Positions 436 through 59,280 of a DNA stretch of 64,000 nt are shown here, piece after piece. Each line of letters opens with the position of its first letter. Positions within the stretch are counted from its first letter, which is position 1. The notes below the pieces were generated by a model that was given only the letters and a program-made list of their open reading frames with translations, ran no database searches and had not been told where the DNA came from. This stretch comes from a virus: the IMG/VR virus record IMGVR_UViG_3300035670_000040, positions 1 to 64,000 of that record. The stretch is one strand, 5' to 3'. Position numbers and translations under genes: made by a program.

Positions 436-578
436 TTTAATTTTAATAAATCTACATAAGCAGATAAACTCCATACTTGTGTTTTAAATTCTGAATTCTC
501 TTGAGAGTTTATTCCTACAAAGTAGTCATTATCAGTTAATGTTGATTTTAGTGGAAAATCTGTGAATTTCTTAGGCAT
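1..578 (-). CDS. Collagen-like (Gly-X-Y) fibre/structural protein, 3'-partial (runs off window start)
   Basis: Hand translation from ATG at 578: [75 protein letters not shown]...GLQGSTG..., open to the window edge; same strand as the upstream gene; absent from the ORF track. Confidence 0.9.
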
Positions 579-36797: not shown

Positions 36798-36801
36798 GAT
36801 A

Positions 36802-46528: not shown

Positions 46529-46563
46529 AATTGTGATATATTATATCAAGTAATTTATAAAAA

Positions 46564-48369
46564 TCAAATTACTATTCTTGTTTTCCCGTTTATTTTTTCC
46601 AAAGTTATAACATTATCTATATTGTTTTTAGAAACAGAAGGATTGTGTGAAATAATATATATTGATTCTTTGTATTTTTCGGATTTTTCTTTTAAAATCT
46701 CCAATACTTTGTTTGTTCCGATTTCATCCAATGCTGAATCAAAAAGTTCATCATACATATTAAGTGAATAATATATACCAGACTGTGATTTAAGTATGTC
46801 CTGAAATGTAAAAAGTATTGAAATATCTATTCTTTTTCTTTCTCCTCCACTAAAATTAAAATAAGAGCATTCTTTTTTGTTCTCATTTATAATTGTTTCG
46901 TCAAAATATTCATCAAAGGTACATGTACATGGTGCTTCTAGTCTTTTTAAATAAAAATTCAATTTATTATTGAAGAAAACAAGAAGTTTTTTAATAATAT
47001 GTGTCTTAACACCCTCCTCTGAAACAATAAGTTTTGAATTTTCTAGAATATTCAGTGTTTTTTGTTGATTTGTAAGTTTTTCTTCTATTTCTTTTACGGA
47101 TTGTTCTATTTCTTTTATTTTTTCTTCTGTATGATCCTTTTCTTGTAGTAAACTATCTATAGATTCTTGAATTTCCGAATTTTTGTCATTAATTGTAGAA
47201 TTCTCCTTTATTAAAACATCTATATTTGTTATTTTTTGATTAAATGTTTTATATAAATCATTTAATTCTCTTTGTTTTTTGATAAAATTATTTTTTTCAT
47301 TTAAAATTTCATGTCTTTGTTTTGATATATTATCAAATTCTTGTTTTTTTGTGTTTTTATCATCAGATAATTGATTTAAATGTTCTTCTATAGAAGAATC
47401 GTCTTCATCCGACAGTTTTTTCTTACATGTTGGACATATTCCTGTTTTATTCTTTAATGATTTTATTTGTTTTTCTATATTTTCAATTTCAGTATGAAAA
47501 ACTGCTTCTTTTTTGGAAGCATCCAGCAATGAGTCAGCTATTTTTGATACTTTTTCTTCTATTTTTTTAATAGCACTTTCAGTTTTTTTCAAAGATTCCT
47601 CCAATTTACTTTTTGTGTCTAAAAGTGTTTGATTTTTATTTGTTTTTAACTTTTCTTCGTTTTCTTTTATTTTATTTTTTAAAGTTTCAATTTTTTGATC
47701 CTTTATTTGTTGGTTTTTTAATTTTTGTTCTTTAAAAAAAGAAATTGTTTTTTGTTTTTCTGAAAAAAGGCTGGAAGAAATATCATATTCTTTTTTTAAG
47801 TCATTGTAATCCTGCCTAACATTAGAAAGCATCTCACTAAAAACGTTTATTTGAAGAATACTTTCAATAAATTTTCTTTTTTCCACTTTCTTCTGAGCCA
47901 TGAATGGAATAGTATTGTCTAATGACATTATTACAGAGTTTCTAAACAACTCTTCATTTGCTCCTATAAGTTCTATTATGGCTTCGTCTGTTTTTTGAAT
48001 GGTAGAGTATGTTGTATCGACTTCTTTCTTATACAAATGAACTTTACTTGGATTTAAACTTCTTTCTATCTTGTATTCTGTAGTTTTACCGTCTAATGGC
48101 GTTAAGTCAAATTCCAATTCAACCAAACAAGTTTCTTTAGAATGATTGTGAACAATTTTGTCTTTTTTGATATCTCTTATAGTATTTCCGAAGATAACCC
48201 AATATAAGGCATCTAAAATTGTGGTTTTTCCACAACCATTTTTACTTTGTTTATCTTTATTTTCCCCTGTTATAAGAAAAATTCCTTTTTTAAGAGACAA
48301 TTCTAATTCATCATCACCAACAGATAAAAAATTTTTAATTTTTAATTTTTTAAATAAAATTTTTTTCAT
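46564..48369 (-). CDS. Recombination endonuclease ATPase subunit (gp46/Rad50-like)
   Basis: KNFLS, NGCGKTT, CPTC Zn hook, FSGGE, YDELFDSALD, ISH. Confidence 0.95.
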   Translation of the reverse strand: MKKILFKKLKIKNFLSVGDDELELSLKKGIFLITGENKDKQSKNGCGKTTILDALYWVIFGNTIRDIKKDKIVHNHSKETCLVELEFDLTPLDGKTTEYKIERSLNPSKVHLYKKEVDTTYSTIQKTDEAIIELIGANEELFRNSVIMSLDNTIPFMAQKKVEKRKFIESILQINVFSEMLSNVRQDYNDLKKEYDISSSLFSEKQKTISFFKEQKLKNQQIKDQKIETLKNKIKENEEKLKTNKNQTLLDTKSKLEESLKKTESAIKKIEEKVSKIADSLLDASKKEAVFHTEIENIEKQIKSLKNKTGICPTCKKKLSDEDDSSIEEHLNQLSDDKNTKKQEFDNISKQRHEILNEKNNFIKKQRELNDLYKTFNQKITNIDVLIKENSTINDKNSEIQESIDSLLQEKDHTEEKIKEIEQSVKEIEEKLTNQQKTLNILENSKLIVSEEGVKTHIIKKLLVFFNNKLNFYLKRLEAPCTCTFDEYFDETIINENKKECSYFNFSGGERKRIDISILFTFQDILKSQSGIYYSLNMYDELFDSALDEIGTNKVLEILKEKSEKYKESIYIISHNPSVSKNNIDNVITLEKINGKTRIVI

Positions 48370-48417
48370 TATATTATGTATAATATAACATATGTTTTTA
48401 ATATATTCAACAATATA

Positions 48418-49140
48418 TTAAAAACAACTAAAATTAGAATAATATAAATTATCTAAACGATAATGAATTGAATCCAAACCTTCGCATAACTCTATTATTC
48501 TTGGTTTGTTTAATGATGATGCTATTGTGGTAGGAGAACTTTGATTTCCCAAAAACAACTTACAGCTATTAATTTTTATAAAAAAATCATATAAACAAGA
48601 CACTTTTAACATTTCTACGTTGTTTTTAAATTTAAAATTATTATATTGTTCTTCATCAAAACATATAAATTTTGCATTTTGATTATTTTTAATAATTTCT
48701 TCATATTTTTTAGAAGATTTCTGAGTTAATGGTATTCTAACAGATCTATTAATTAATAAGACATCTTTTAAAGAATCATCTTTTTCTGAAATTTCTATCC
48801 ATTTATAATCTTTAGGTGTGTTTTTTTCATTTAAAAATGTTTTTAAAAAAATATTCAACCAATTATCTCTATATAAAAGATTAGAATATCTAAATGATAC
48901 AAGATTTATATCAATACTCTGATTGTCATATATTTCAAAACTTTCAAACCAATCCTGTTTCTTTAAAACAGGGTATAAATCATTATAAGTGAAATCTAAT
49001 CCTTTTTCAAAATTACAACCGATATTACTTAAAAATATTTTTGCTTTAAAACCGGAAATCTCATAGTTTCTTTTGCATACCATCAAACTATTAATAAAAT
49101 CACCTAGTTTTGGACCTGTTAAATAACTTTTACTTACCAT
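48418..49140 (-). CDS. GT9-like glycosyltransferase
   Basis: N-terminal LGD and C-terminal INSCKLFLGNQSSP..IA..L..P resemble the heptosyltransferase fold. Confidence 0.6.
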   Translation of the reverse strand: MVSKSYLTGPKLGDFINSLMVCKRNYEISGFKAKIFLSNIGCNFEKGLDFTYNDLYPVLKKQDWFESFEIYDNQSIDINLVSFRYSNLLYRDNWLNIFLKTFLNEKNTPKDYKWIEISEKDDSLKDVLLINRSVRIPLTQKSSKKYEEIIKNNQNAKFICFDEEQYNNFKFKNNVEMLKVSCLYDFFIKINSCKLFLGNQSSPTTIASSLNKPRIIELCEGLDSIHYRLDNLYYSNFSCF

Positions 49141-49381
49141 ACATTTTAGTAGATCCTTGTTTATATAACTTTTGTGGTTTTCCTGATACGATTAACTCGT
49201 TGATTTTTTCATCTATTTCTTGAATCAAATCAGTTCTGAAAGAATTTGCCACATTTGTTACTCTAGTAGCATCTGCAATTTGTTTATCAGAAGCATTTTT
49301 ATCTCTCTTAATATCTTCTGCCATCCAAATCCTAATATTAGTAATAGTTAATTTGTCAATTAAATTTCCGATTGTATCCAT
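49130..49381 (-). CDS. Small helical protein (DUF4254-like)
   Basis: TIGNLIDKL...IWMAED.KR...N..R..LIQEID. Confidence 0.6.
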   Translation of the reverse strand: MDTIGNLIDKLTITNIRIWMAEDIKRDKNASDKQIADATRVTNVANSFRTDLIQEIDEKINELIVSGKPQKLYKQGSTKMYGK

Positions 49382-49995
49382 ATTTTATTTCCTTCTATAA
49401 AATTTGAATTAATATACCAATCTTCGTATGGTTTATTATTCCATTCTGGATTAGAATCCAGACATACTGCATTTTCTACAACTCTAGTATACCCTTTACT
49501 TGTTAGTAAATCAAATATTTTGTTTTTTTGTTCAGATCCAGAACAATATAAATTATGTTCAATTGTCATTAATTTAAACTTCCATTTATTAAAATCTATA
49601 GTATTTAATATAGTAAATTCGTGACCTTCCACGTCTAAAGACAGATAATCTATGGTATCGTCTTTTAAATTTTTTTCTAAAACATCATTTAGAATAAAAC
49701 AAGGAGTTTTAATTCCTTGTTTTGTTATTTTATCAGATGAAAAATAACATTCTCCATTATTATCAGATATAGCACCATAAATATTGATACAATTTCTGTT
49801 TTTAATTAGATTTTGATATACTGAATAGTTTGCCTCTATACATAATCCACTCCAGTTATAATATTTTTCTAAACAATAGGTATTGCTTGTTTGTATTCCA
49901 TCATAAGCTCCAATGTCAACAAAGACTCCGTTAGTTTTATATAATAGATTTTCAAGAACCCATTTGTCTTGTTTTGATTGAGAGAAGTATTTCAT
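49360..49995 (-). CDS. FkbM-family SAM-dependent methyltransferase
   Basis: SQSKQD, FVDIGAYDG..SNT, WSGLCIEAN, IDYLSLDVEGHE. Confidence 0.9.
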   Translation of the reverse strand: MKYFSQSKQDKWVLENLLYKTNGVFVDIGAYDGIQTSNTYCLEKYYNWSGLCIEANYSVYQNLIKNRNCINIYGAISDNNGECYFSSDKITKQGIKTPCFILNDVLEKNLKDDTIDYLSLDVEGHEFTILNTIDFNKWKFKLMTIEHNLYCSGSEQKNKIFDLLTSKGYTRVVENAVCLDSNPEWNNKPYEDWYINSNFIEGNKIWIQSEI

Positions 49996-50912
49996 AAATT
50001 TGTTATAATACTATATAAATTATCTCTAAATTTTATATTATTCCATTTAGATCTATAATATCTTACATTATCCAATCCAGAATCCATAATTTGTTTCAAA
50101 TTAAAGTTATTTGATATTGAGATATTTGGAGTTTCTGTTGTTATATGACGAAACATATACGAATTGTTAACAGCCAATGGAGTATCTACACTAATAGCAT
50201 AGTCTATTACAGATGACAGACCTCTTCCATGCATCTCGTCATATAAAAAGACATTTAAAGAATTAGAATTTAAAAATTTTAAAATATCATTATCAGATAA
50301 AAAATTTGTAGTAAAAACAACAGATACGTTTGGATTTGTTATTTTATTTTTACATCTTTCTATTATATTATTTGTAGTATTACCGCTATAATCTCCAAAA
50401 AAAGGATTTGTTATATGTAATTTTATAATAGCTTTATTAAATGTCTGAGATACTAATTCACAAATTTTTTCAAATCCTTTATTATCGAAACCAAAACCAA
50501 AACTTCCTATTACTGGAACTTCATTTGTTTCTTTTTTTAAAGAAAAATCAAAGATTGGTCTAATTAAAGGATAAATTCTTTCAGAAGGATTAAAAGACAT
50601 ATCTGCTGTTAAATAACCATCACTGTGTAAATTATAAGGATAAGTTAATTCATGAAAAATAAAAAGCTGTTTTTTATTTTTTAATTGTTCTGTTTTTTGT
50701 CTAGACAACCATTTCATCGTTGCCGTGTGCCAGTTATAAATTATAATATCTGGATTATGTATTGATAAAATAGAATCAAAATCTTCTACATTATTTGTTT
50801 CTAAGTTTAGAAATTCATACCTAGATTCATTTTGTAAAATATTTTTTATTCTTTTTCCATACTGATATACACCACATTCAAAAATTTTGCTATTTACTAA
50901 TAAAACTTTCAC
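49992..50912 (-). CDS. GT-B (GT4-like) glycosyltransferase
   Basis: CGVYQYG, IGSFGFGFDNKGFE, GLSSVIDYAIS..PLAV. Confidence 0.7.
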   Translation of the reverse strand: MKVLLVNSKIFECGVYQYGKRIKNILQNESRYEFLNLETNNVEDFDSILSIHNPDIIIYNWHTATMKWLSRQKTEQLKNKKQLFIFHELTYPYNLHSDGYLTADMSFNPSERIYPLIRPIFDFSLKKETNEVPVIGSFGFGFDNKGFEKICELVSQTFNKAIIKLHITNPFFGDYSGNTTNNIIERCKNKITNPNVSVVFTTNFLSDNDILKFLNSNSLNVFLYDEMHGRGLSSVIDYAISVDTPLAVNNSYMFRHITTETPNISISNNFNLKQIMDSGLDNVRYYRSKWNNIKFRDNLYSIITNL

Positions 50913-52141
50913 TTAGAAATAATTTGAAATTTAGGACAAGGAACAATAAAAGAACCACCAGAAGATAAAAAATCATCTTCTCTTTTTATAAACTCATTGA
51001 TAAAATGCCAAGGTAAAACCAACATATAATCAGGATTCATTTCTCTAACTTCTTCCTCTGATTTAATTGGTATATTAGTTCCTATTGTTTTTAACCCAAA
51101 CTTATAATGGCTTCTTTCTGCTATGGCATCAATTAATGTATTATCTAATCCAAAATATTGAAGAAGAGTATTTCCTTTTGTAGATGCTCCATAACCACAA
51201 ATAATTTTTCCTTTTTCTTTTTCTGATTTTATAAAAGAAACAGTTTGTTCTTTTAACTTTTGAATATTATCGTAAAAATCAAGCCATGTTTTTTCACTAT
51301 TAATTCCTGTTTCTTTTTCCCATATTAATAAGGACTCTATTCTTGTATTACAAATATCACGATATGGTGCTGTAGAAAATTTAAGAATATCACTATTCTT
51401 CTTTTTAATATAAATTCTAAAACTTCCTCCATTTACATCATTTAATTGACAATCTACAATTTTAAAATTAGCTTCTGTTAAAAGTTTATTTATAGATTCT
51501 AAAGACCAATAATATACATGCTCATGGCAAATATTATCAAATGCCAGTTGTTTTATCATTAATGGTGTGTAACTCATTTGTAAAACAAAAATACCATCAT
51601 CATCTAAAACATCATAAACATCATTTAAAAAGTTTATAGGTTCATCTAGATCATAAAACATTGCTATACATGTTATAACATTAGCTTTTTGGTTTTTAAA
51701 TTTTGATTTATTGAAATTTTCTAATGTAAAATAATCTTGAATTATTTGATCAGCTATTTTTTCGGATTCTTGTTTAAAAGAGTCTTCTGCTGGATCAATT
51801 CCTAACTTTTTAAATGTTTTAGGAACATAACTTAATAAAGTTCCATCATTACACGCTATATCTAACCACAAATCATTTTCTTTAAAATTTTGCAAAGAAA
51901 TTATGCTGTCAACAATTCCGCTTAATTCCCTTTTCATGGTAGAATTAATTCCGCTTCTATACCAATACTTTCCAAACATTGAATGAATTGGTGTTGTTTT
52001 GTTTAATCTTGCTGAACCATATCTTTCATCTATTACTAAAGTCAAATCATGCTTTCCTGCTCTTGCATCTGAATCTTTATCTATAAAATCGGATACATAT
52101 AAATCACCCAAACTAAATAATTTTTTATTAAATTCTATCAT
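50909..52141 (-). CDS. NDP-sugar C3-methyltransferase (TylC3/EryBIII/TcaB9-like)
   Basis: YWYRSG, LDIACNDGTLL, GIDPA, FDNICHEHVYY, NGGSFR, YGASTKGNTLL, VLPWHF, FIVPCP. Confidence 0.9.
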   Translation of the reverse strand: MIEFNKKLFSLGDLYVSDFIDKDSDARAGKHDLTLVIDERYGSARLNKTTPIHSMFGKYWYRSGINSTMKRELSGIVDSIISLQNFKENDLWLDIACNDGTLLSYVPKTFKKLGIDPAEDSFKQESEKIADQIIQDYFTLENFNKSKFKNQKANVITCIAMFYDLDEPINFLNDVYDVLDDDGIFVLQMSYTPLMIKQLAFDNICHEHVYYWSLESINKLLTEANFKIVDCQLNDVNGGSFRIYIKKKNSDILKFSTAPYRDICNTRIESLLIWEKETGINSEKTWLDFYDNIQKLKEQTVSFIKSEKEKGKIICGYGASTKGNTLLQYFGLDNTLIDAIAERSHYKFGLKTIGTNIPIKSEEEVREMNPDYMLVLPWHFINEFIKREDDFLSSGGSFIVPCPKFQIISK

Positions 52142-52148
52142 ATAATAT

Positions 52149-52177
52149 ATATTAATTGTTGTTTATTATCTTTTCAA
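52149..52177 (-). promoter_or_regulatory. Sigma70-like internal promoter (TTGAAA-N17-TAATAT), ATG 7 nt downstream
   Basis: tttcaa 52172-52177, atatta 52149-52154, start at 52141. Confidence 0.45.
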
Positions 52178-53137
52178 TAAAGAAATATCATTTTTTACCA
52201 TTTTAGAAACCATTTCTGAAAATGATGTTTTTGGTTTCCAATTTAAAACAGTTTTAGCTTTTGTTGCATCTCCTCTTAAAACATCTACTTCGGCTGGTCT
52301 AAAGAATTTTTCATCTTTTACAACATATTTAGACCAATCTGTTATTCCTATATTTGAAAATGATTCATCTAAAAAGTTTCTAATTGTTCTGGTTTCACCT
52401 GTAGCTAAAACATAATCATCTGGCTTTTCTTGTTGAAGCATAAGCCACATCCCTTCAACATAATCAGGAGCATATCCCCAGTCTCTAGATGCTTCTAAGT
52501 TGCCCAAACTTAATGTTTCCTGTAATCCTAAATGTATTCTAGCTATACCGTCTGTTATTTTTCTTGTTACAAACTGTTTTCCTCTTCTTTCGCTTTCGTG
52601 ATTGAATAAAATACCGCTACAATTAAACATATTATAAGATTCCCTGTAATTTTTACAAATCCAGTGACCATATAACTTGGCAACGCCATAAGGAGATCTT
52701 GGATAGAATGGCGTTGTTTCTTTTGCTGGATTTTCTACCATTTTTCCAAACATTTCCGAAGAAGATGCTTGATAAAATTTTATATTTTTACTTCCATATT
52801 CTCTTATTGCTTCAAGCATTCTTAATACACCAACACCTGTGGTGTTTGCTATTACTTCTGGTGTATCCCAGCTATCTTCAACAAACGATTGTGATGCTAA
52901 ATTATAAACTTCGTCTGGATTTGATTCTTTTAAACATCTTACTAATGAATTTTGATCTGATAAATCTCCTTTTACAAAGTTTATGTGATTTACTAAATGT
53001 GTAGTATTTCTTCTGTCCTCATTAGCCTTTCTTCTTTCTATACCAAAAACCTCGTAGTCTTTTTCTAATAACAATTCGGCTAGATGACTTCCATCCATTC
53101 CATTAATTCCACTTATTAATGCTTTTCTTTTTTTCAT
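52166..53137 (-). CDS. gmd: GDP-mannose 4,6-dehydratase
   Basis: ALISGINGMDGSHLAE, YNLASQS, FYQASSSEMFG, PRSPYGVAK, GILFNHES, FVTRKI, RDWGYA, RPAEVD. Confidence 0.96.
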   Translation of the reverse strand: MKKRKALISGINGMDGSHLAELLLEKDYEVFGIERRKANEDRRNTTHLVNHINFVKGDLSDQNSLVRCLKESNPDEVYNLASQSFVEDSWDTPEVIANTTGVGVLRMLEAIREYGSKNIKFYQASSSEMFGKMVENPAKETTPFYPRSPYGVAKLYGHWICKNYRESYNMFNCSGILFNHESERRGKQFVTRKITDGIARIHLGLQETLSLGNLEASRDWGYAPDYVEGMWLMLQQEKPDDYVLATGETRTIRNFLDESFSNIGITDWSKYVVKDEKFFRPAEVDVLRGDATKAKTVLNWKPKTSFSEMVSKMVKNDISLLKR

Positions 53138-53145
53138 GTTTTTAA

Positions 53146-53829
53146 TTATAAATTTTTCCAATTAATACAAGGAGTTAAATTTTTATCCACCTGTGTCGTT
53201 ACACCAGGTAATGGATTCCATAGTCTTGTATTTTTTTCGGTTATTAGATATCGAAAAAGATCTCGGTCATTCAATTTAAATTTATAAGCAGCATCTTTCA
53301 TTGTACTATTCCAAAATTCTCTTGTGCATGACCAAGTGCAACAGGTAGATTCACATGTTCTCCAATGACAATTTGTTTTTTTAGAAAAAGCTATATATTC
53401 TTTACCTAAAGTGATATCATCTGATCTTGTATATCTATCTAAATGATCATATCCTGTAACCAAATTAAAATTTAAAACACCATAATATATAGTTTTTATG
53501 GAATTTTCTAGATGCAAATAATCATCTTCCACGAAATATAAGTGATTAGTTAATTCATCTGCTATTTTAAAGGTTTCTAATAAACTTTTTTCATTATTAT
53601 TATAATCAATTTTTACTACTTCAAAATTTTTAGGAATATTTTTATATAAAACACCTTTAGGACCATCGTGTACAAAAATAACTTTATTAACTAATTCTGA
53701 AGAATATTCTAGAGCTTTTAGAAAAGAATTAAGACATTTTATTTTATCAAACCAATCGGGTCTTATATGTTTAAATTGATTTTTTAAAATTTCATTCTCA
53801 CAACACCTATATATTATATCAATTTTCAT
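53146..53829 (-). CDS. GT-A-fold glycosyltransferase-like protein
   Basis: LYFVEDDYLH (DxD-like), YDHLDRY, HWRT..STCCT. Confidence 0.65.
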   Translation of the reverse strand: MKIDIIYRCCENEILKNQFKHIRPDWFDKIKCLNSFLKALEYSSELVNKVIFVHDGPKGVLYKNIPKNFEVVKIDYNNNEKSLLETFKIADELTNHLYFVEDDYLHLENSIKTIYYGVLNFNLVTGYDHLDRYTRSDDITLGKEYIAFSKKTNCHWRTCESTCCTWSCTREFWNSTMKDAAYKFKLNDRDLFRYLITEKNTRLWNPLPGVTTQVDKNLTPCINWKNL

Positions 53830-54556
53830 TTTTATTAAAAAGTTTTTTTGCTATTTGTATAGGCAATATATCATTATTATTTTCTAATAAATCTAACAAT
53901 TCTTGTTTATAACCATGACCTCCATGAAATCCGAAATGTGAATCTATTGTAATATTTTTTTCATTTAAATCAATAGGACATTCAAAAGAAAATCTTTTTG
54001 CTGTTTTTACATCAGCATATTTAATTCCAAGTTCTTTGAATTCTTTTCTTTTTAATATACAGAAAAAATTATCTTCTGGAACATAATCTGGATCAGGATA
54101 ATCTAATTTTGATGCTTCTTCTAAGATTTTTTTTGATCTCAGTGAAAACCCACCATTTCCTACTATAATAGGAGTTTTTCTTATATCTATACCCATATTA
54201 CAAGTATACATTCCTCTTTGTGACAATAAAATATCCCAAGGAGCGCCTATATAATCAAAGTTCAAAAAATCATCAGTCCACATGAGAGGATTTGTTACAA
54301 ATCCATCAGGTTGCACTATTAAAACATGGCTTGTGTTTATATAGTTGTAAAGTTCCTTAACACAAAATAAACTATATTCTCCCAAGCTTTTTATTTTTGG
54401 TATAATTTTTGTTTTTATGTTTGAATGTTCTTTATCGCTTAATAAAAACGAATCTCCAAATTTTATATATCTGGAACTATACTCTATAGCCTTTATACTT
54501 TTATCTGAATCTCTCGTATTAATTGATACTATTGTTACATTTTCAAGATTTAACAT
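53819..54556 (-). CDS. DUF5672-family GT-A-like protein
   Basis: VLIVQPDGF, DYIGAPW, VGNGGFSLRS, PEDNFF, FSFE, FGFH. Confidence 0.8.
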   Translation of the reverse strand: MLNLENVTIVSINTRDSDKSIKAIEYSSRYIKFGDSFLLSDKEHSNIKTKIIPKIKSLGEYSLFCVKELYNYINTSHVLIVQPDGFVTNPLMWTDDFLNFDYIGAPWDILLSQRGMYTCNMGIDIRKTPIIVGNGGFSLRSKKILEEASKLDYPDPDYVPEDNFFCILKRKEFKELGIKYADVKTAKRFSFECPIDLNEKNITIDSHFGFHGGHGYKQELLDLLENNNDILPIQIAKKLFNKNEN

Positions 54557-55418
54557 GTTTTTGTAATTCTTTTATTATCTCTGAATAACTAGGTGTTTTA
54601 TAAAAAATTAAATTTTTTGTTTTTTTGAAATTAACACCTTTCCCCAAAACATCAGGTCTTCTTCCGTTTGCATAAACTGGCATAAAATGCGCTCCTTCCA
54701 TATCCAAAACAACATTTATCAAATTTTCTTTAGCGCATATTTGAGTCAAATTAGCTGTTCCTGTTTGATTCTGTACACAGAATAAACAATTTTCAGAATT
54801 TAAAAGAGAACACCAGTCTTTTAAATTTACTAAATGAACATTTGGCATTTTACTAAAAATTTCGTTATGAAATCCTGTTATATAAATTGGAACATTATAT
54901 TGTTTTTGTAAATTTTCAACCAAACCAAAACTATAATCATCTGGCATATTTAAATGCTCTCTATGTTTTCTTATTCGTCTATTCAAACATATAAATTTTT
55001 TATTCGGTACTATTGAATGGTTATAATCTAGGTTTGTTATTAAATCATAATCTTCCTCAAAGAAACGATATTTTGGCTTAGAATCTACAAAATACAAATC
55101 ATGAAAATCTTTTGTTTCCTGAAAAATACAATTTAAATAAAATTCTATAGAGTTGATTTCATTAACAACTTTTTGCTTTTTTATTTCTTCATATTCTTTC
55201 CAAGAAATAGTTTTAATTTGTTTACTATACAAAAATTCTCTACCGCTACATGTAACAACAACATCCTCATTTGTGTTTAATTGTTTTGTATTTATGAGTC
55301 TCTTTGATAAAAGATGTGTTGTTATAACTTCCCAACCAAGTTCGTAATAATTTTCTAATGGTCCAATCTGAAGTGTTTTATCACTATGAATTTCTCTTCC
55401 TGCTATAAAAAATTTCAT
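54543..55418 (-). CDS. Hypothetical protein in glycan island (possible GT-B)
   Basis: Overlap-coupled ORF; context only, weak C-terminal resemblance to GT9-like neighbours. Confidence 0.5.
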   Translation of the reverse strand: MKFFIAGREIHSDKTLQIGPLENYYELGWEVITTHLLSKRLINTKQLNTNEDVVVTCSGREFLYSKQIKTISWKEYEEIKKQKVVNEINSIEFYLNCIFQETKDFHDLYFVDSKPKYRFFEEDYDLITNLDYNHSIVPNKKFICLNRRIRKHREHLNMPDDYSFGLVENLQKQYNVPIYITGFHNEIFSKMPNVHLVNLKDWCSLLNSENCLFCVQNQTGTANLTQICAKENLINVVLDMEGAHFMPVYANGRRPDVLGKGVNFKKTKNLIFYKTPSYSEIIKELQKHVKS

Positions 55419-56128
55419 ATAAAAATGTCTAAACTTTCTATGTTAATGCAATTATTGTAAGAAAATTTACAATTTTCGTCCAAATAATACAATGTTTTTT
55501 TATTTAAAAAATTATTTTTATTCATAACAGAAAACCAAGGACCAGTATTTATTCCTATAATCTTTTTTGTATATAGTGACAATTGGCCTATGTTATAAAC
55601 TGACATGTTATAATCTAATGTACATGGTATATCCTTTATATTCTTTGTTGTAATTAATTTTTTATTTTTGAATTTTTCTATAAATTGATTTTCTGCTATA
55701 TCTTTCGATAATTGATTGCTTAGAGGTATAGAATTTATTAAAAGTATATCCCAGTCTTGAGATGTTGGGTTGTTTCCTTTTATTTCAGGTAACATATCTT
55801 CTATTTTTTTAAAGGGACATGTTAAGCCTAACAATTTGCATAGTTTATTATACGAATATAGTCTTAATTCGCACAGGTTAAACGGTATGGGGGGGATTCC
55901 AAATTGTCCAACCCAACCTCTATAACTATCAATCGGTGCATTATTATATGGTTTTACAATAATTCTTTGTTTTTCATTTACAAAGTCTTGAACTTGGCTA
56001 CTATGTTTATCCAAAACATAATAATCAATAATCAAGTCTGGATAAATTTTTAAAAGTTCATTTAAAAAATGAGTATGCAGCAAACAATCTCCTAAATGCG
56101 TTTCGCTTTTAAAATTTATTTTTTTCAT
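55415..56128 (-). CDS. GT9-like glycosyltransferase
   Basis: HLGDCLL N-terminus; IGQLS..KKIIGINTGP. Confidence 0.55.
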   Translation of the reverse strand: MKKINFKSETHLGDCLLHTHFLNELLKIYPDLIIDYYVLDKHSSQVQDFVNEKQRIIVKPYNNAPIDSYRGWVGQFGIPPIPFNLCELRLYSYNKLCKLLGLTCPFKKIEDMLPEIKGNNPTSQDWDILLINSIPLSNQLSKDIAENQFIEKFKNKKLITTKNIKDIPCTLDYNMSVYNIGQLSLYTKKIIGINTGPWFSVMNKNNFLNKKTLYYLDENCKFSYNNCINIESLDIFI

Positions 56129-56915
56129 ATATAAATTTTAACTTTTCTAAACATTCTTTTTCTGAAACTATTTTTTCTTGAGGTCCATAATTTTGAACAA
56201 CAGAAAAACCGGTTTTTTTTATAAAAGTTTCTACACCTTTTTTAAATGTGTTTATAAAATCTTCTCCTCTAATTTTACTTTGTTGATGATCAGGAACAAT
56301 ATCTTTTAAATATTTAAAAGATTCATGAACATCTGCAAAATATCTAAATGGAGGGTGAAAGTTTTTTTCAATTGAAAGATATGTGTGATATACATGTTCC
56401 ATAGCATTATAAAACTCTTCATCCATCAATCCAATTTCATCTAAAACGGTTTTGTGATAATAAGAAAATGCTCCTAAAAGATTAAAATATAAATCTATTT
56501 TAATATTATTTTTATATTCTATGGTTTTTATTATATTAAAAGACCCATTGTTTGGATTTTTATTATGATTACCATGTAAAGCATAATTTAAATGCAAAAT
56601 ACCTGTATTTTTGGATGTTTCTATATATTTTTCAAAAACATTTTTATCTATTATTTCTACATCATCTTCCATCAAAAAAATATGTTCACAATTTTTGTTT
56701 AAAAGAAATTGTAGTGCCTTATTTTTAGAAAATGCTACTCCTTTTCTTCCTTTTGTTTTAATATAATTTTTAGGAATAAAAGAAGGTGTTGTTTCTCCGT
56801 CATTAACAACGACAATCTCTATATCTTCTCTTTTAATCAAAGAATTTATAGACTTTTCATAAAAATCTAAACGATCACAGGTTATTAAGCCGCAACCTAT
56901 TTTATTTTTTTCCAT
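56109..56915 (-). CDS. GT2-family glycosyltransferase
   Basis: GLITCDR, IVVVNDG, GVAFSKNKAL, IFLMEDD, IGLMDEEF, MEH. Confidence 0.85.
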   Translation of the reverse strand: MEKNKIGCGLITCDRLDFYEKSINSLIKREDIEIVVVNDGETTPSFIPKNYIKTKGRKGVAFSKNKALQFLLNKNCEHIFLMEDDVEIIDKNVFEKYIETSKNTGILHLNYALHGNHNKNPNNGSFNIIKTIEYKNNIKIDLYFNLLGAFSYYHKTVLDEIGLMDEEFYNAMEHVYHTYLSIEKNFHPPFRYFADVHESFKYLKDIVPDHQQSKIRGEDFINTFKKGVETFIKKTGFSVVQNYGPQEKIVSEKECLEKLKFIYEKNKF

Positions 56916-57651
56916 AATTTGATTGTAAAAAATTTATATTTTGTAGAACAGTCTCTTCATTTGATTCGGTTATTTCATTGTGATTAGGAATAAACTTGTT
57001 TTTATTCATAAAATAACCATAAGAATATCTTACCGTTAAGTCTTCACTAGGAAAATCTTTTATATAAGAATTTTCCATAGTTTTTTTATTCTCTACCATT
57101 TTTAAAGAAATGCTTGGATAAAATCCATTTGGCGTATATAATTTTTTATTTTTTAATCTAGTAATATAATCATAAACATCTAAATCATGAGTGTTTATAA
57201 ACTGTTCATCAAAAAAACCAACATTTTTTATTATACCTTTAAATGTATATAAAAATTTAGTATTAAGTTTTTTTGAAATTTTCAAAATAAATCCGTTATC
57301 ATCTTCTACGTCTAATGTCTTATCATCAACATATCCTGATAAGAACCAAGTTCCAAATGTTTTTGCTGTTTCGTGTATTTTTTCAAAAATACTACTGTCA
57401 TTAATAATTTGATCAGAGTGTAAAATAAAATAATAATCTAAATTATTGATTCTAAAATCATGAAGAATTAAATTCCTCATGTGGGCAATAGATACTTTAT
57501 CAACAAAAATATGATTTTGTATTTTATTGTTTTTAATTGTCGTTTTTCTATTACTAACAACACATACATAAACATTTTCTGGTATTTTATCCAGAACATT
57601 ATTTAATGAATCGTCATCATACAAATCTAATAATCCTATTCCTGTTTTCAT
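56902..57651 (-). CDS. GT2-like protein (divergent paralog)
   Basis: IAHMRN, YFILHSD, VGFFDEQF parallel the neighbouring GT2 but lack the EDD motif. Confidence 0.6.
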   Translation of the reverse strand: MKTGIGLLDLYDDDSLNNVLDKIPENVYVCVVSNRKTTIKNNKIQNHIFVDKVSIAHMRNLILHDFRINNLDYYFILHSDQIINDSSIFEKIHETAKTFGTWFLSGYVDDKTLDVEDDNGFILKISKKLNTKFLYTFKGIIKNVGFFDEQFINTHDLDVYDYITRLKNKKLYTPNGFYPSISLKMVENKKTMENSYIKDFPSEDLTVRYSYGYFMNKNKFIPNHNEITESNEETVLQNINFLQSNYGKK

Positions 57652-58685
57652 GTAGTTTTATTGTAAATTTCAGTCAAATATTTAATTGTTTCTTCTTTAC
57701 AGTCAATATCCAATGTATCTATATATTCGCATATATTTTGAAGAATGTCAACAGAGTCATATGTTTTTGTTTCTGTTTTATCATTATCTTCTTTTTCCAA
57801 ATACTCTGTTTTAACATTAAATGGTTCATGTTTCATAACCTTCATTAATAAATTGCTTGCATCCTCTTGTTTTAATGAAGAATCTAAATTTAGAGAAACA
57901 AAATTGTTTTTAATTTTGTTGGAAAGATTTTTTTTATTCAAATCTTCGGTTTTTAATTTCACAAATTTTGGAGAAAATGTGTTTTCAATAAAATCAAATG
58001 ATTGATTATCCAGATCAACGATATAATAACCTCTTTGATCTCCTGTATCTCCAAAATTGTGTTGATATGGGCTTCCTAAATATAAAATTTGTCCTTTTTC
58101 ATATATTCTGTGGTCTTTTTTGTGAAAATGACCTGATATTATGAAAGAACTTTTGTTTAATAGATTTTTAGATTCTTCTCCCTTTTCACATGTCTTAAAA
58201 GTATTCATGTAAAAAGTATTGATCTCAAAATGACCAAAACAAATGTCTGAATTTGGAATATTTGAACAAGAAACACCCCAAGGAATAAATGATATTGTTT
58301 TATTGTTTTTTGTTTTTAATAAAAAATATTCTTTATCAACTATTTTAATATTATTCCATCCATCAAAAACACAGATTGAATTTATATCACTATTCTCCTT
58401 GTGTAGACAATCATGATTTCCAGCCAAAATAATAATTTTGAAATCTATAAAATAATCAAAAAAGTTTTTTGCTGTATGTATTGTTTTTAAAGAAATTTCG
58501 GATCTATTATGAAATACATCACCAGCAATAACTATTGTTTTAATTCCATTTTCTTTATAATATTTCGATGCTCTCTTAGCAAATTCTAAAGATATATCGT
58601 GCCAATCCTGACTGTCTTGATAAAGACCTATATGGATGTCAGAAAAACATCCAACTTTTGAATCTATAATATCAATCATTATCAA
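57648..58685 (-). CDS. Recombination nuclease subunit (gp47/Mre11/SbcD-like)
   Basis: SDIH, GDVFH, GNHD, GHFE, SGHFH, YLGSP metallophosphoesterase motifs. Confidence 0.95.
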   Translation of the reverse strand: MIMIDIIDSKVGCFSDIHIGLYQDSQDWHDISLEFAKRASKYYKENGIKTIVIAGDVFHNRSEISLKTIHTAKNFFDYFIDFKIIILAGNHDCLHKENSDINSICVFDGWNNIKIVDKEYFLLKTKNNKTISFIPWGVSCSNIPNSDICFGHFEINTFYMNTFKTCEKGEESKNLLNKSSFIISGHFHKKDHRIYEKGQILYLGSPYQHNFGDTGDQRGYYIVDLDNQSFDFIENTFSPKFVKLKTEDLNKKNLSNKIKNNFVSLNLDSSLKQEDASNLLMKVMKHEPFNVKTEYLEKEDNDKTETKTYDSVDILQNICEYIDTLDIDCKEETIKYLTEIYNKTT

Positions 58686-59280
58686 AAGGATTTAAATCTT
58701 TTGTTATAGTTGTTTGATTATTTTTAAGCAAGTTTGAATAACCCTCTGTCATTAACATATATTCTTGCTGATACCTTTCTTGTGCTTCATGGATAGTTTT
58801 TTCTTTTTTAATTCTATTTCTAAATGCATTGAATGCTATTCTAGTAAAATAAGAGAATGGATTTGTTCCCTTTTCTCTATCATATTTTTTAGAAATAAGC
58901 GCCTTAAACATTCTTACAATTCCATCACCAACCATCTCTTCTCTGTATGTATATCCTGCAAAATTTGATGAATAACTTAGTTTACTTGAAATTTTGTTTA
59001 ACATTTCTGCTAATTCATTTGATATAACACCACTATTGTAATATTTTACAATTTCATCATCAAATTGTTTAGGATCAACATAAAATTTTTCCTTCGGAAT
59101 TTTAGGTCTGTTTTGTCTTTTCTTTTTTTCTAATTCATCATAATCAATGTCTTCTAATTCATCAGAATCTTCATCATAATCTTCGGCATAAATTTCATTC
59201 TCTGGATTGTATGCCAAATATTCTTCGTCATCAAATTCTTTAAATTTCTTTTTCGATAGTTTTGTATTTTTCTTCATCAT
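58672..59280 (-). CDS. Late transcription sigma factor (gp55-like)
   Basis: YVD, NFAGYTYREEMVGDG, NPFSYFTRIAFNAF..RIKKEK. Confidence 0.93.
   Translation of the reverse strand: MMKKNTKLSKKKFKEFDDEEYLAYNPENEIYAEDYDEDSDELEDIDYDELEKKKRQNRPKIPKEKFYVDPKQFDDEIVKYYNSGVISNELAEMLNKISSKLSYSSNFAGYTYREEMVGDGIVRMFKALISKKYDREKGTNPFSYFTRIAFNAFRNRIKKEKTIHEAQERYQQEYMLMTEGYSNLLKNNQTTITKDLNPFDND

Follow-up and report, generated by a model that had tools for sequence, protein, structure and literature searches.

A twelve-gene island between gp47 and gp46 is probably one allele of a hypervariable glycan-assembly locus in uncultured aquatic T4-like phages

The window analysed here, a 64,000-nucleotide stretch of DNA, belongs to a 130.8-kb T4-like IMG/VR fragment (G000) from an uncultured water phage; since G000 is 61% complete (CheckV), absences in it alone mean little. 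Between 48418 and 57651 on the minus strand, exactly 12 contiguous ORFs fill the gp47 to gp46 interval and encode, in the order 48418 to 57651, proteins of 240, 83, 211, 306, 410, 331, 227, 245, 291, 237, 268 and 249 aa. The upstream flank is gp47, a Mre11/SbcD-like nuclease subunit (57648..58685, minus strand; PF12850; T4 gene 47, 29% identity, E 2e-22), and the downstream flank is gp46, a Rad50/SbcC-like subunit (46564..48369, minus strand; AAA_23, SMC_N and Rad50 zinc hook; T4 gene 46, E 3e-27). Pfam matches place gp47, gp55, uvsW and uvsY on the upstream side of the island and gp46, a 433-aa ORF (orf54_433) and then DNA polymerase on the downstream side; T4 homology supports the identities of gp46, gp47, gp55 and pol43. 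The T4 gene order is 55 - a-gt - 47.1 - 47 - 46.2 - 46.1 - 46, in agreement with the background used in the original prediction (46 and 47 close together, a-gt between 47 and 55). Whereas only 46.2 and 46.1 separate the two genes in T4, here the 12-gene island lies between them.

The predicted arrangement of mostly overlapping genes was borne out, with overlaps of 4-22 nt at 9 of the 11 internal junctions. The exceptions are the junction from Gmd to the C-methyltransferase (C-MT), a gap of 24 nt, and that from G227 to Gmd, which is -16 with a TTG start or about +8 with the ATG at 53137, probably the true start of Gmd. The island is followed by a 48-nt gap between A240 and gp46, and its first gene, L249, overlaps gp47 by 4 nt at an ATGA, as had been noticed earlier; translational coupling of the island to gp47 is thus supported. 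Homologues exist elsewhere for every one of the 12 genes, which are therefore real genes and not chance ORFs. The original prediction had also described a single internal promoter-like site of sigma70 type, but a consensus scan of 45-62 kb returned 107 such sites against 124 +/- 9.5 in shuffled sequences, hence has no discriminating power and lends that description no support. The window contains 12 copies of the motif TATAAATA (17 expected), only one of them in the island, inside the C-MT gene; from the 45-62 kb scan and these counts, no late-promoter signal could be assigned to the island.

The labels Gmd, sugar C-methyltransferase, FkbM, DUF5672 and short DUF4254, proposed earlier from the translations, all scored above curated HMM cut-offs. 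F331 (52166..53161; all island genes are on the minus strand) is a GDP-mannose 4,6-dehydratase (Gmd; PF16363, 434.9 bits; TIGR01472, 431.3, cut-off 415), and E410 (50909..52141) is an NDP-hexose C-methyltransferase of the TylCIII/EryBIII type (PF08484, 152.4 bits; PF13489, 58.9 bits). In MAGs of bacteria and archaea, homologues 56-63% identical to E410 adjoin Gmd genes. A homologue that is 33% identical lies beside Gmd and Fcl in Synechococcus phage DSL-LC02, where the gene order is Gmd-CMT-Fcl-GT-GT4-FkbM; the island shares the order Gmd-CMT-...-GT4-FkbM. C211 (49360..49995) is an FkbM-family methyltransferase (PF05050, 53.9 bits; TIGR01444, 38.4, cut-off 37.7; PHROG 8156). B83 (49130..49381) is a short DUF4254 protein of 83 aa, matching PF14063 (33.2 bits) only at positions 3-64 of 144. 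Its homologue adjoins the C-MT homologue in two of five MAG loci (69-76% identical), and neither of these two genomes has another DUF4254 copy; B83 is genetically linked to the C-methyltransferase.

The two genes nearest gp47 encode related GT-A proteins. K268 (56109..56915), the conserved second gene, is a GT2-like glycosyltransferase that matches PHROG glycosyltransferase families 2456 (7e-22) and 1579 (3e-21), and its E83-D84-D85 motif is invariant across 11 aligned sequences; its Pfam GT2 score, 21.4 bits, is below the cut-off of 23.3. L249 (56902..57651) is a paralogue of K268 that lacks the DxD motif. The two families align over 247 columns (hhalign, 98.9%, E 3.8e-17) with FILHSD of L249 opposite FLMEDD of K268; L249 also matches PHROG 2456 (7e-7), and the usual DxD position reads HSD here and NSN in distant relatives. 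With this motif lost, L249 may be a non-catalytic helper. K268 is 31% identical to the N-terminal domain, a GT-A domain, of the gp98 glycosyltransferase of Mycobacterium phage Pacc40 (cluster F). Matches to K268 at about 31% identity occur in 553 Mycobacterium phage records (E 1e-11; E 1.7e-16 in a two-locus database), and these make up 553 of the 590 deposited phage records that match the conserved GT-A gene. ORFs in relatives' islands match the N-terminal region of Che8 gp108 (34%, 6e-26); K268 showed no match to Che8 gp108-110 in sequence comparison.

Six island proteins (A240, D306, G227, I291, J237 and L249) matched no named Pfam glycosyltransferase family even at E<=10; what D306, G227 and L249 did match were unrelated families, weakly and below threshold. 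Their glycosyltransferase labels draw on fold and profile evidence of unequal strength. J237 (55415..56128), with 40 homologues that all lack Pfam matches, was modelled with AF2 at pLDDT 94. Its top Foldseek matches are WaaC, WaaF, the GT9 structure 3tov and TibC (E 1e-5 to 1e-4), the last of which is a protein heptosyltransferase; VIA superposed the model on these four with Z 12.6-12.0 and rmsd 3.8-4.2 over 213-219 residues, against Z <=9.2 for other GT-B folds. On this model, J237 is a compact GT-B protein folded like GT9 heptosyltransferases. A240 (48418..49140), the last island gene, belongs to an uncharacterised family (52 homologues, none with Pfam) that is weakly GT9-like: its hhalign match to the J237 family has E 1.2e-3 over 210 columns at a probability of only 19%, with matching LGD, LLIN and G-x-x-x-GP motifs, and its best PDB profile match is WaaF (1psw, E 1.3). 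I291 (54543..55418), with 36 homologues, none with Pfam, had been left as an unknown; profile comparison relates its C-terminal half to the A240 family (hhalign, 82%, E 1e-5, 144 columns), and it had no significant profile match to the J237 family and no match to PDB sequences. From these profiles A240 and I291 appear to be distant kin, I291 probably being a nucleotide-sugar-binding GT-B half, so that there may be three compact GT-B proteins of GT9-like kind and not two.

H245 (53819..54556) is a DUF5672 protein (PF18922, 71.9 bits, cut-off 24.4), a family without assigned activity that we count as glycosyltransferase-like. G227 (53146..53829) gave nothing informative in Pfam or PHROG (only DUF3764 at E 0.079); its exact sequence is in the Atlas, where the model (pTM 0.91) has TM 0.84 to a 'Glycosyltransferase 2-like' cluster, a lead only towards a GT-A/GT2-like protein. 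D306 (49992..50912) had no significant Pfam match (only DUF6179, 16.3 bits, cut-off 25). A DSL-LC02 gene carrying the annotation 'glycosyltransferase family 4 protein' aligns with 99% of D306 at 35% identity, and the Atlas feature neighbours of D306 include viral 'glycosyltransferase' clusters, AGT PF11440 (0.97) and Glyco_trans_1_4 (0.96); these are again lead-level signs of a GT-B/GT4-like enzyme. D306 and G227 stay at the level of leads, and the transferase labels of A240, I291, G227 and D306 are weak. Outside the island, gp46 and the polymerase flank orf54_433 (45227..46528, minus strand), a conserved GT-B glycosyltransferase of GT4-like type. It has no Pfam match itself; 14 of 52 aligned family members match Glyco_trans_1_4; it is 47-69% identical in relatives, has 2225 representative clusters at E<=1e-3, and its AF2 model (pLDDT 90) matches MshA, BshA, PglA and WaaG in Foldseek (E 3e-10 to 3e-9). 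It probably belongs to the same glycan system.

The island is not peculiar to this phage: a GT-A pair next to gp47 and a variable glycan cassette occupy the gp47-gp46 interval in all related loci accessible to the analysis. An L249 homologue directly follows gp47 in 34/34 related loci with sequence downstream of gp47, and a K268 homologue is present in all 29 that extend past it. In the 12 loci that reach gp46 the interval measures 4.4-9.5 kb, and the order is GT-A pair, variable glycosyltransferase/methyltransferase cassette, gp46, GT4-like gene, polymerase. A census of 120 same-strand ORFs from 13 loci included GT2 (23), GT7C (9), GT25 (5), GT1 (4), GT11 (3) and two each of GT6, GT10 and GT47, together with Methyltransf_24 (11), FkbM (9) and CmcI (4). 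The closest relatives by gp47, L001 (77%) and L002 (75%), are without genes A-J. The modules J-I-H-G and Gmd-CMT-FkbM-DUF4254-A240 recur at the same site in more distant phages, with identities above those of the flanking genes. In L049, J, I and H are 73%, 76% and 83% identical (H also in L048), against 40% for gp47 and 39% for gp46. In L051, C-MT is 74% and the DUF4254 protein 93% identical (B83 also in L052), against 37% for gp47 and 35% for gp46, and an A240 homologue (48%) follows the DUF4254 gene; L053 has a G227 homologue (64%). These data show that the genes between the conserved ends are swapped as modules among distantly related phages at the same site. The island is best explained as one allele of a hypervariable locus for glycan assembly that is shared across a deep-branching clade of uncultured aquatic T4-like phages, and it belongs among the glycan clusters already known from aquatic T4-like phages.

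The gene content agrees with the proposal of a phage-encoded glycan pathway with methylation, and supports a GDP-6-deoxyhexose branch, C-methylation, an FkbM-type methyltransferase and about eight glycosyltransferase-like proteins (L249/K268, J237, A240/I291, H245, G227 and D306). All 12 products are soluble, without a membrane segment (maximum 19-residue Kyte-Doolittle mean <=1.06). Profile searches found Bac_transf and Wzy_C in 0/4 records each, and lipid-carrier machinery was not found in G000 or in three relatives that are 92-100% complete. We propose that Gmd would make GDP-4-keto-6-deoxymannose, which E410 is predicted to C-methylate, and that C211 would put on a further methyl group, the small B83 travelling with this sugar module. 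Passages of PMC3539893 propose a Gmd, TylCIII and GMER route for virenose and describe bifunctional GMDs; here the 4-keto reduction, for which the island has no dedicated enzyme, would fall to the host or to a bifunctional Gmd. The conserved enzymes would prime the acceptor, and the cassette enzymes would lengthen the chain and cap it with methylated, branched 6-deoxysugars. The lack of a membrane protein, initiating phosphoglycosyl transferase, flippase, polymerase and ligase suggests that sugars would be added one by one, in the cytoplasm, straight onto the acceptor.

The best overall explanation, which we favour tentatively, is a clade-wide glycan locus with a protein acceptor. That acceptor, the leading candidate at somewhat less than even confidence, would probably be a virion protein (of the capsid, the tail or a collagen-like fibre), so that phage lineages would differ in their glycan coats. 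K268 is homologous to the Pacc40 gp98 GT-A domain, and passages of PMC11256854 describe that in the cluster F phages Che8 and Rita capsid proteins bear glycans and glycosyltransferase genes lie at the genome 3' end; in passages of PMC12363180, Che8 gp110 is essential for capsid glycosylation. This homology is at the level of the catalytic domain and says nothing about acceptor choice. TibC among the GT9 neighbours of J237 also speaks for protein, as does a Thr-rich collagen-like G-x-T gene at 3-578 (minus strand). In the closest complete relative, seven open frames (268-1402 aa) contain the collagen-like matches; among three complete relatives keeping the conserved glycosyltransferase core, two yielded no collagen-like gene. 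Whereas glycosylated mycobacteriophage capsids have a C-terminal extension, the major capsid protein here is without one, and its Pfam Gp23 match stops about 20 residues short of the stop. GT9-like, GT25, GT10, GT11 and GT6 enzymes are also typical of LOS/LPS outer-core synthesis, which counts against a protein acceptor. Against a virion acceptor, the island sits in the replication/recombination block and not among late structural genes, a position no less compatible with DNA or host targets.

An oligosaccharide on a modified phage base could act against restriction or CRISPR, like T4 a-gt and b-gt on hmC, and the gene placement has parallels: in T4, a-gt lies between 55 and 47, with gene 42 and b-gt just past gene 43, and here transferase genes follow gp47, co-oriented and coupled with the replication genes, and stand between gp46 and the polymerase. 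An arms race with modification-dependent nucleases would be compatible with the hypervariability, and the AGT clusters among the Atlas feature neighbours of D306 are a lead in the same direction. Passages of PMC13326640 describe RB69/DLP3 putting arabinose on 5-hydroxycytosine and a tri-arabinosyl DNA glycan, and the best folds of orf54_433, MshA and BshA, are those reported there for the arabinosyltransferases; however, such folds are generic for GT4, and eight to nine transferases with C-/O-methylation far exceed the glycans of those passages. No base hydroxymethylase or TET/JBP gene had been recognised in the window, and this now extends to the 131-kb record and three 92-100% complete relatives, which, like G000, also yielded no DpdA in the genome search suggested earlier. 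By family, thymidylate synthases (hmC, hmU and 5hoC synthases) were found in 0/6 records, including those three relatives, and Tet_JBP and TGT/DpdA in 0/4 each. All three complete relatives have ThyX, the enzyme for ordinary dTMP synthesis. With no route to a hydroxylated base found in these records, and with ThyX present, DNA glycosylation is unlikely, and stepwise glycosylation in the cytoplasm of a protein (virion) or of host LOS is favoured; the DNA option of the original prediction is further weakened in that no island ORF matched T4 a-gt, T4 b-gt or Pfam AGT.

Remodelling of the host envelope is the second candidate, less probable than a protein acceptor: during infection, soluble transferases would modify lipid A-core/LOS, or another host glycolipid, at the inner face of the membrane, and the changed cell surface could, for example, block superinfecting rival phages or alter grazing or adhesion. 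The nearest solved folds to J237 are the LPS-core heptosyltransferases WaaC and WaaF, and the GT25 (5 ORFs), GT10, GT11 and GT6 genes of relatives belong to typical LOS/O-antigen families. LOS-type assembly needs peripheral soluble transferases only, which fits an island without membrane proteins, and a host-takeover function would suit the placement in an early/middle-type replication block. Passages of PMC7029224 and PMC12801897 propose an envelope-changing role for 'LPS' genes of cyanomyophages and pelagimyophages, but as hypotheses. No Kdo/heptose pathway gene, lipid-carrier enzyme, flippase or ligase was found in the island or the 4 records searched; the host would need an LPS core able to take these sugars, and the phage matches of the conserved GT-A gene are mostly mycobacterial, mycobacteria being without LPS. 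Lastly, a metabolic or decoy role, in which the enzymes would make a free or small-molecule glycoside, disable a host cytoplasmic protein by glycosylating it, or drain host nucleotide sugars, agrees with the solubility of every island product, with small-molecule glycosylation by the GT-B/GT4 relatives MshA and BshA, and with glycosylation of proteins such as TibA by GT9-like folds. We regard it as rather unlikely, in that a long series of different transferases, capping methyltransferases and cassette diversity between lineages are characteristic of an exposed polymer that selection diversifies and not of a metabolic by-product.

The phage to which the window belongs (record G000; linear, 130,820 bp, 28% G+C, with the window as its first 64 kb) is a T4-like phage, and a distant one. 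Its gp46, gp47, gp55 and DNA polymerase were confirmed by comparison with T4. The polymerase, however, is no more than about 30% identical to any of the 2,678 phage records that it matches, and a megablast search of positions 46000-59000 against 50,697 phage records returned nothing; therefore no deposited record in the set searched is a close relative. The Mre11-like gp47 (57648-58685) and the Rad50-like gp46 (46564-48369) bracket exactly 12 minus-strand ORFs (48418-57651), which in order of transcription are L249, K268, J237, I291, H245, G227, F331, E410, D306, C211, B83 and A240. Upstream of this island, beyond gp47, lie gp55, uvsW and uvsY, and downstream of gp46 lie a 433-aa ORF (orf54) and the polymerase. 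The original prediction of twelve contiguous, mostly overlapping genes, the first of them coupled to gp47, was thus reproduced: the gp47 stop overlaps the first island gene by ATGA, and 9 of the 11 internal junctions overlap, by 4-22 nt. The island has the same G+C content as its flanks, and none of its 12 proteins has a hydrophobic segment (the 19-residue Kyte-Doolittle mean peaks at 1.06). An internal promoter-like site of sigma70 type had also been proposed, but here the scan was uninformative, as sigma70-like sites are rarer in the region than in shuffled sequence; the motif TATAAATA was likewise without enrichment. Terminator-like hairpins between 45000 and 62000 number 14, against 2.7 +/- 2.0 in shuffles, and most of them lie within coding sequence, on either strand.

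To compare this interval across related phages, gp47 was searched against IMG/VR, which yielded 38 loci at 47-77% identity, and the window's proteins were mapped onto them. A homologue of L249 directly follows gp47 in all 34 loci with downstream sequence (the other four end in or at gp47), and a homologue of K268 comes next in every one of the 29 loci whose sequence continues. In the 12 loci long enough to include gp46, that gene lies 4.4-9.5 kb past gp47; a counterpart of the 433-aa ORF (54-69% identity) and then the polymerase come after it. The rest of the island is not shared in this way. Homologues of A240, B83, D306, E410, G227, H245, I291 and J237 were not found in the 38 loci at E<=1e-5, and the other cassette matches consist of weak Gmd-like SDR hits in three loci and a single FkbM hit. 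The intervals of 13 loci hold instead 120 ORFs, all on the same strand, among which Pfam models identify GT2 (23), Methyltransf_24 (11), FkbM (9), GT7 (9), GT25 (5), GT1 (4), CmcI (4), epimerases (4), GT11 (3), and GT6, GT10, GT47 and RXYLT1 (2 each). Given the conserved pair and this tally of glycan enzymes, the gp47-gp46 interval is a glycan locus in the whole clade and not a peculiarity of one phage. The clade locus consists of a conserved core, the L249/K268 pair and orf54, and a variable cassette between them.

More distant phages were reached through the J237 family, and it is in these that the cassette genes of the window recur. Two loci (L048/L049) carry K-J-I-H, with J, I and H 73%, 76% and 83% identical to those of the window, whereas gp47 and gp46 are 40% and 39% identical. 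A second pair (L051/L052) carries K-J-H-Gmd-CMT-FkbM-DUF4254-A240, in which Gmd (57%), the C-methyltransferase (74%), DUF4254 (93%) and A240 (48%) again exceed gp47 (37%) and gp46 (35%). Another locus, L053, carries L-K-J-I-H-G, with G at 64%, and a 208-kb contig bears copies of A240 and J237 that are 84-86% identical to those of the window. What the cassette contains thus does not follow the phylogeny of the flanking genes, and modules move between lineages by recombination at the gp47-gp46 site. In its fixed site, conserved core and freely exchanged cassette the locus resembles a bacterial O-antigen locus; however, it is viral, encodes soluble enzymes only and lies between phage recombination nuclease genes.

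Within the core, K268 scores 21.4 bits against the GT2 model PF00535, below the gathering cut-off of 23.3, but matches PHROG glycosyltransferase families strongly (2456 at 7e-22 and 1579 at 3e-21), and so it is a divergent GT2/GT-A relative. An acidic motif of the DxD type after the fourth strand, E83-D84-D85, is invariant in 11 of 11 aligned sequences. The family profile of K268 gave one weak match in the PDB (6p61, E 0.0018) and that of L249 gave none. The two families are homologous to each other (hhalign 98.9%, E 3.8e-17, 247 columns). L249 lacks the DxD, the place of the EDD being taken by H-S-D in the window, by T-D or S-D among close relatives, and by N-S-N, G-S-N or T-S-N among more remote ones. 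L249 is therefore classed as a GT-A paralogue rather than as an active GT2, and is possibly non-catalytic, to judge from these residues. We infer that it might serve as a helper subunit that binds its active neighbor K268. A structure prediction of the K268-L249 complex, made without controls, scored 0.00 and gave no verdict, speaking neither for nor against binding. Many relatives have in addition a protein of ~495 aa whose N-terminal domain is a third K268-like copy (locus L015, 12522-14009; L021, 12632-14113; L014, 12571-14067), and their islands also encode two-domain proteins of about 420-437 aa whose C-terminal half matches the N-terminal region of mycobacteriophage Che8 gp108; the phage of the window has neither.

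The remaining core gene, orf54 (45227-46528, minus strand, 433 aa), which separates gp46 from the DNA polymerase, encodes a GT4-like GT-B protein. Its counterparts in relatives are 47-69% identical, and in many cases it is better conserved than gp46 or gp47. Its family comprises 2225 representative clusters at E<=1e-3; the sequence of the protein itself was linked to no Pfam model, and the family profile had no match in the PDB. A sigma70-like site of the form TTGATT-16-TGxTATAAT lies just upstream of the gene (46567-46540).

Five genes of the cassette exceed curated HMM cut-offs, namely those for Gmd, the TylCIII-type C-methyltransferase, FkbM, DUF5672 and DUF4254, and for these the family labels of the original prediction stood; several of its glycosyltransferase labels depend on fold, profile or lead evidence. 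This is the case for J237, whose family comprises 40 proteins without annotation. An AlphaFold model built from that alignment (pLDDT 94) matched WaaC, WaaF, 3tov and TibC best (Foldseek E 1.2e-5 at best), with VIA Z scores of 12.6 for WaaC, 12.3 for 3tov and 12.1 for WaaF and TibC. Against GT9 structures these scores range from 12.0 to 12.6, with an rmsd of 3.8-4.2 A over 213-219 aligned residues, while the next family scores 9.2, so that J237 lies about 3 Z units closer to GT9 structures than to other GT-B families. In contrast, no Pfam match to Glyco_transf_9 (PF01075) was obtained even at E<=10, and the family profile found 3tov in the PDB at E 0.051 over the N-terminal 50 residues only. 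Hence we describe J237 as having a GT9-like fold and not as a GT9 member, and its likeness to GT9 is one of modeled fold only. It shares with the GT9 heptosyltransferases WaaC, WaaF and TibC a predicted two-domain GT-B fold, but at 237 aa, against 315-390 aa, it is about 90-150 residues shorter, and it is 7-14% identical to them.

Searches of the PDB with the single sequences of A240, D306 and J237 gave nothing usable. Comparison of family with family by hhalign outperformed single-sequence runs for A240 and I291, neither of which, as a single sequence, significantly matched the J237 family. The A240 family (52 homologues) aligns with the J237 family over 210 columns with common motifs at E 1.2e-3, the probability being only 19%, and its profile finds WaaF in the PDB weakly, at E 1.3. 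I291 (36 homologues) had been listed as the unknown gene of the island, and it still has no identity by Pfam or PDB, its family profile included; however, its C-terminal half is related to the A240 family (hhalign 82%, E 1e-5), and it does not significantly match the J237 family. G227 is predicted to be GT-A-like from an Atlas structure model, which matches a GT2-like cluster at TM 0.84. D306 has viral glycosyltransferase clusters as its Atlas feature neighbors and aligns from end to end, at 35% identity, with a Synechococcus phage DSL-LC02 gene that is annotated as GT4. The DUF5672 protein, H245, found only two distant loci among metagenome contigs, at 33% identity.

The sugar-modifying genes were assigned with the aid of equivalog and domain models. 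F331 exceeds the TIGR01472 equivalog cut-off for Gmd (431.3 against 415 bits, model positions 2-341 of 342) and matches PF16363 over its full length (434.9 bits, positions 1-332 of 332). E410 consists of a PF13489 domain (58.9 bits, residues 84-229) followed by PF08484 (152.4 bits, residues 236-403, model positions 2-160 of 160), and is a predicted NDP-hexose C-methyltransferase of the TylCIII/EryBIII type, enzymes that methylate NDP-4-keto-6-deoxyhexoses at C-3; its genetic linkage to Gmd suggests that the substrate may be a GDP-sugar. C211 is over both FkbM cut-offs (PF05050, 53.9 against 22.7; TIGR01444, 38.4 against 37.7). A precedent for the pairing of Gmd with E410 is the GDP-linked route proposed for virenose, a 6-deoxy-3-C-methyl sugar of Coxiella burnetii LPS, in which, as set out in the sections consulted of PMC3539893, Gmd is followed by a TylCIII-type C-3 methyltransferase acting on the 4-keto intermediate and then by a GMER-type epimerase/reductase. 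Gmd and the C-methyltransferase are likewise adjacent in the island; however, the GMER/Fcl-type enzyme that ends the virenose route is not encoded there, and the island has both FkbM and DUF4254, which the virenose proposal lacks. With no reductase in the window's island, the 4-keto reduction would be supplied by the host or by Gmd itself, and bifunctional GMDs that also reduce are noted in the same source (PMC3539893).

The short DUF4254 protein B83 (49130-49381, minus strand) scores 33.2 bits against PF14063, over the cut-off of 27 but as a partial match covering model positions 3-64 of 144; full-length forms of about 200 aa occur in bacteria. Other short copies lie in loci L043 (11220-11468), L044 (9696-9944) and L051 (16349-16597), and the protein keeps 93% identity between phages that have only 37% in gp47. 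We also inspected five bacterial or archaeal MAG loci with homologues of the C-methyltransferase (56-63%). Gmd (43-57%) lies within 4 kb in four of the five, and in two, one from a Methylococcaceae and one from a Chlamydiae genome, an 83-aa DUF4254 protein (69-76%) adjoins the methyltransferase and is the sole DUF4254 copy of the genome. A wider test of this linkage was dropped, as only 4 of 401 genomes sampled from one phylum carry DUF4254, too few for the purpose. Short DUF4254 proteins may be partners of NDP-hexose C-methyltransferases, and the linkage of Gmd, C-methyltransferase and DUF4254 suggests a role for an uncharacterized protein family; both DUF4254 and DUF5672 receive only passing mentions in the literature that we searched.

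The position of the island raises the question of whether its product is attached to phage DNA. The analogy with T4, pointed out in the original prediction, is real: in the T4 gene order a-gt is placed between genes 55 and 47, with gene 42 and b-gt on the far side of gene 43. The T4 system and the arabinosyl-5-hydroxycytosine clusters of RB69 and DLP3 thus share with the island the placement of transferase genes within the replication block, beside 47, 55 and 43, and the involvement of GT-B folds of the MshA/BshA type, which are the best fold matches of orf54 and are reported for the RB69/DLP3 enzymes (PMC13326640). However, in the known DNA-glycosylation systems covered there, an enzyme of the thymidylate-synthase family supplies hmC, hmU or 5hoC (PMC13326640), and the T4 and RB69/DLP3 systems always include such a base hydroxylating enzyme together with dCTPase and kinases, whereas the thymidylate-synthase family (PF00303) was found in 0 of 6 records, three near-complete relatives among them (G000 itself is 61% complete by CheckV). 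Tet_JBP (PF12851) and TGT/DpdA (PF01702) were each found in 0 of 4 records. The lack of a base hydroxymethylase and of TET/JBP first remarked on in the window therefore extends to the whole G000 record and to the three near-complete relatives, and DpdA was not found in these four records either. These relatives, 99, 100 and 92% complete and with a common glycosyltransferase core, all encode ThyX. No island protein matches T4 a-gt or b-gt better than E 0.5 by tblastn, Pfam AGT has no match in the island (for D306 there is an Atlas feature lead only), and transferases and tailoring enzymes are far more numerous in the island than in the T4 and RB69/DLP3 systems. We therefore regard glycosylation of phage DNA as an unlikely function of the island. 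A gene for a homologue of the FolE2-type GTP cyclohydrolase I lies within the replication block (35973-36884, minus strand; PF02649, 137 bits), but as no TGT/DpdA was found in G000 or the three near-complete relatives, it has no obvious tie to a pathway of 7-deazaguanine DNA modification. In its specific form, a lineage-variable methylated oligosaccharide primed by the GT4 enzyme encoded beside the polymerase and the GT-A pair encoded beside gp47, on a DNA base made glycosylatable by novel chemistry other than that of thymidylate-synthase-type enzymes, TET/JBP or DpdA, the idea is very improbable; if it were true, no known DNA glycan would equal the product in complexity, and DNA glycosylation would have a new entry route.

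Features of an O-antigen/capsule locus of the lipid-linked kind, dependent on Wzx/Wzy or a ligase, were also sought, and Bac_transf (PF02397) and Wzy_C (PF04932) were each found in 0 of 4 records and a membrane protein in 0 of the 12 island products. With DNA disfavored and none of these lipid-linked features found, what remains is stepwise cytoplasmic glycosylation of either a protein or the lipid A-core/LOS of the host.

For a protein acceptor, close parallels are the cassettes of mycobacteriophages (Che8 gp108-110, Pacc40 gp98/gp100, Corndog gp38), in which the phage likewise encodes soluble GT-A enzymes that work in the cytoplasm. K268 matches 590 phage records, 553 of them Mycobacterium phages of clusters F and I, and is about 31% identical over 170 aa, in the N-terminal GT-A domain, to Pacc40 gp98 (E 1.7e-16 when the database consisted of two loci, and about 4e-11 when all phage records were searched), which sits in a glycosyltransferase cassette at the right end of its genome. 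Island ORFs of the relatives match the N-terminal region of Che8 gp108 (34%, 6e-26), although Che8 gp108-110 were matched by none of the window's proteins, K268 included, and TibC, a protein heptosyltransferase, is among the best structural matches of J237. According to the sections consulted of the respective reports, Che8 and Rita carry capsid glycans (PMC11256854), Che8 gp110 is essential for capsid glycosylation (PMC12363180), and mycobacteriophage glycans form a virion coat (PMC11256854, PMC12363180, PMC12619734). However, homology of catalytic domains does not reveal the acceptor, and the mycobacteriophage cassettes are small, with 2-4 genes, and belong to temperate siphophages, where they occupy the right end of the genome, whereas the island has 12 genes and its host genome, that of a T4-like myophage, carries it within the replication block, a location that counts against a protein acceptor. 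In mycobacteriophage virion glycosylation, for which Freeman et al. (2023) is the primary paper, the glycan is reportedly borne by a C-terminal extension of the capsid or tail-tube subunit. In contrast, the capsid protein of G000 (109880-111322) has only about 20 residues past the Gp23 domain and no C-terminal extension.

A collagen-like protein is one possible acceptor. Its gene lies at the edge of the window (3-578, minus strand), runs off the contig start and encodes Thr-rich G-x-T repeats, with G-A-T, G-S-T and G-F-D triplets; TATAAATA is found 5 nt ahead of its ATG. Bacillus BclA is the analogue behind this idea. In G001, the closest complete relative, collagen-like matches extend over seven open frames of 268-1402 aa, but they are absent from the other two complete relatives (G002 and G003), and the protein was rejected as an explanation of the conserved core for having matches in only one of the three. 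If the product coats virions, phage virion glycosylation would extend from mycobacteriophages to abundant T4-like phages of natural waters, implying phage 'serotypes' under diversifying selection.

The other course, glycosylation of host lipid A-core/LOS, is consistent with the GT9-like fold of J237 and with the GT25, GT10, GT11 and GT6 genes in the islands of relatives. 'LPS-like' gene runs have been noted in aquatic T4-like phages since the first cyanophage genomes, and we know of no demonstration of their target. Modification of the host surface is the standing hypothesis for such genes in cyanomyophages and pelagimyophages, as worded in the sections consulted of PMC12801897 and PMC7029224. 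If the host surface, or DNA, were altered, the locus would represent a large, variable counter-defense or exclusion system.

Glycosyltransferase clusters in aquatic T4-like phages are already known, and those of P-SSM2, S-SCSM1, S-SCSM2R, the pelagimyophages and DSL-LC02 share with the island a T4-like genome, runs of soluble transferases, and nucleotide-sugar enzymes and methyltransferases of putative function (PMC12801897 and PMC7029224, sections consulted). S-SCSM2R, with 13 glycosyltransferases, is described there as possibly the marine phage richest in them (PMC12801897). The island differs in being fixed between gp47 and gp46, with a GT-A pair of which one member lacks the DxD, and with a GT4 gene after gp46; its clade is separated from cyanophages by a DNA polymerase only about 30% identical and swaps its cassettes at one site. 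In pelagimyophages, by contrast, the transferases are mostly in a tail-fiber 'host recognition cluster'. A similar gene order is that of the metagenome-assembled DSL-LC02 (PMC10611076), a member of the Kyanoviridae, whose 11-gene cluster (L077, 91916-102407) reads Gmd, C-methyltransferase homologue, GDP-fucose synthase, GT, GT4 and FkbM, plus five GT-like genes. This order parallels F-E-D-C of the island, with its GT4 being the D306 homologue, but the cluster is surrounded by auxiliary genes such as hli and ferredoxin and does not lie between gp47 and gp46, and it has the Fcl reductase (GDP-fucose synthase) that the island is without. Assignment of the clade to the 'moraphage' lineage was rejected, as moraphages are placed outside the T4 group in the section consulted of PMC12619734.

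What the window adds is a cassette made up of a GT9-like trio, DUF5672 and the Gmd/C-methyltransferase/FkbM/DUF4254 module, the modules of which recur elsewhere at higher identity than the flanks. In the article texts searched, we found no description of a glycan island between gp47 and gp46, nor of the combination of fixed site, GT-A/pseudo-GT-A pair, GT4 after gp46 and O-antigen-like cassette exchange. The locus is real, sizeable and experimentally tractable; its fixed site, conserved core and exchanged cassette sharpen the question of what the aquatic 'LPS-like' genes target, and the core genes provide experimental handles in any cultivable member, whether the acceptor is protein, host surface or DNA. 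Finally, the neighborhood varies in other respects among the relatives. In L024 (1815-3173) and L031 (2249-3649) gp55 matches as two separate pieces with about 1 kb between them, and some loci carry an insertion of about 0.8-0.9 kb, located between gp55 and gp47 in L014, L025 and L034 and between uvsY and uvsW in L014, L019, L029 and L034. Mobile elements, such as a homing endonuclease, an intron or an intein, may account for both the split gp55 and the inserts.
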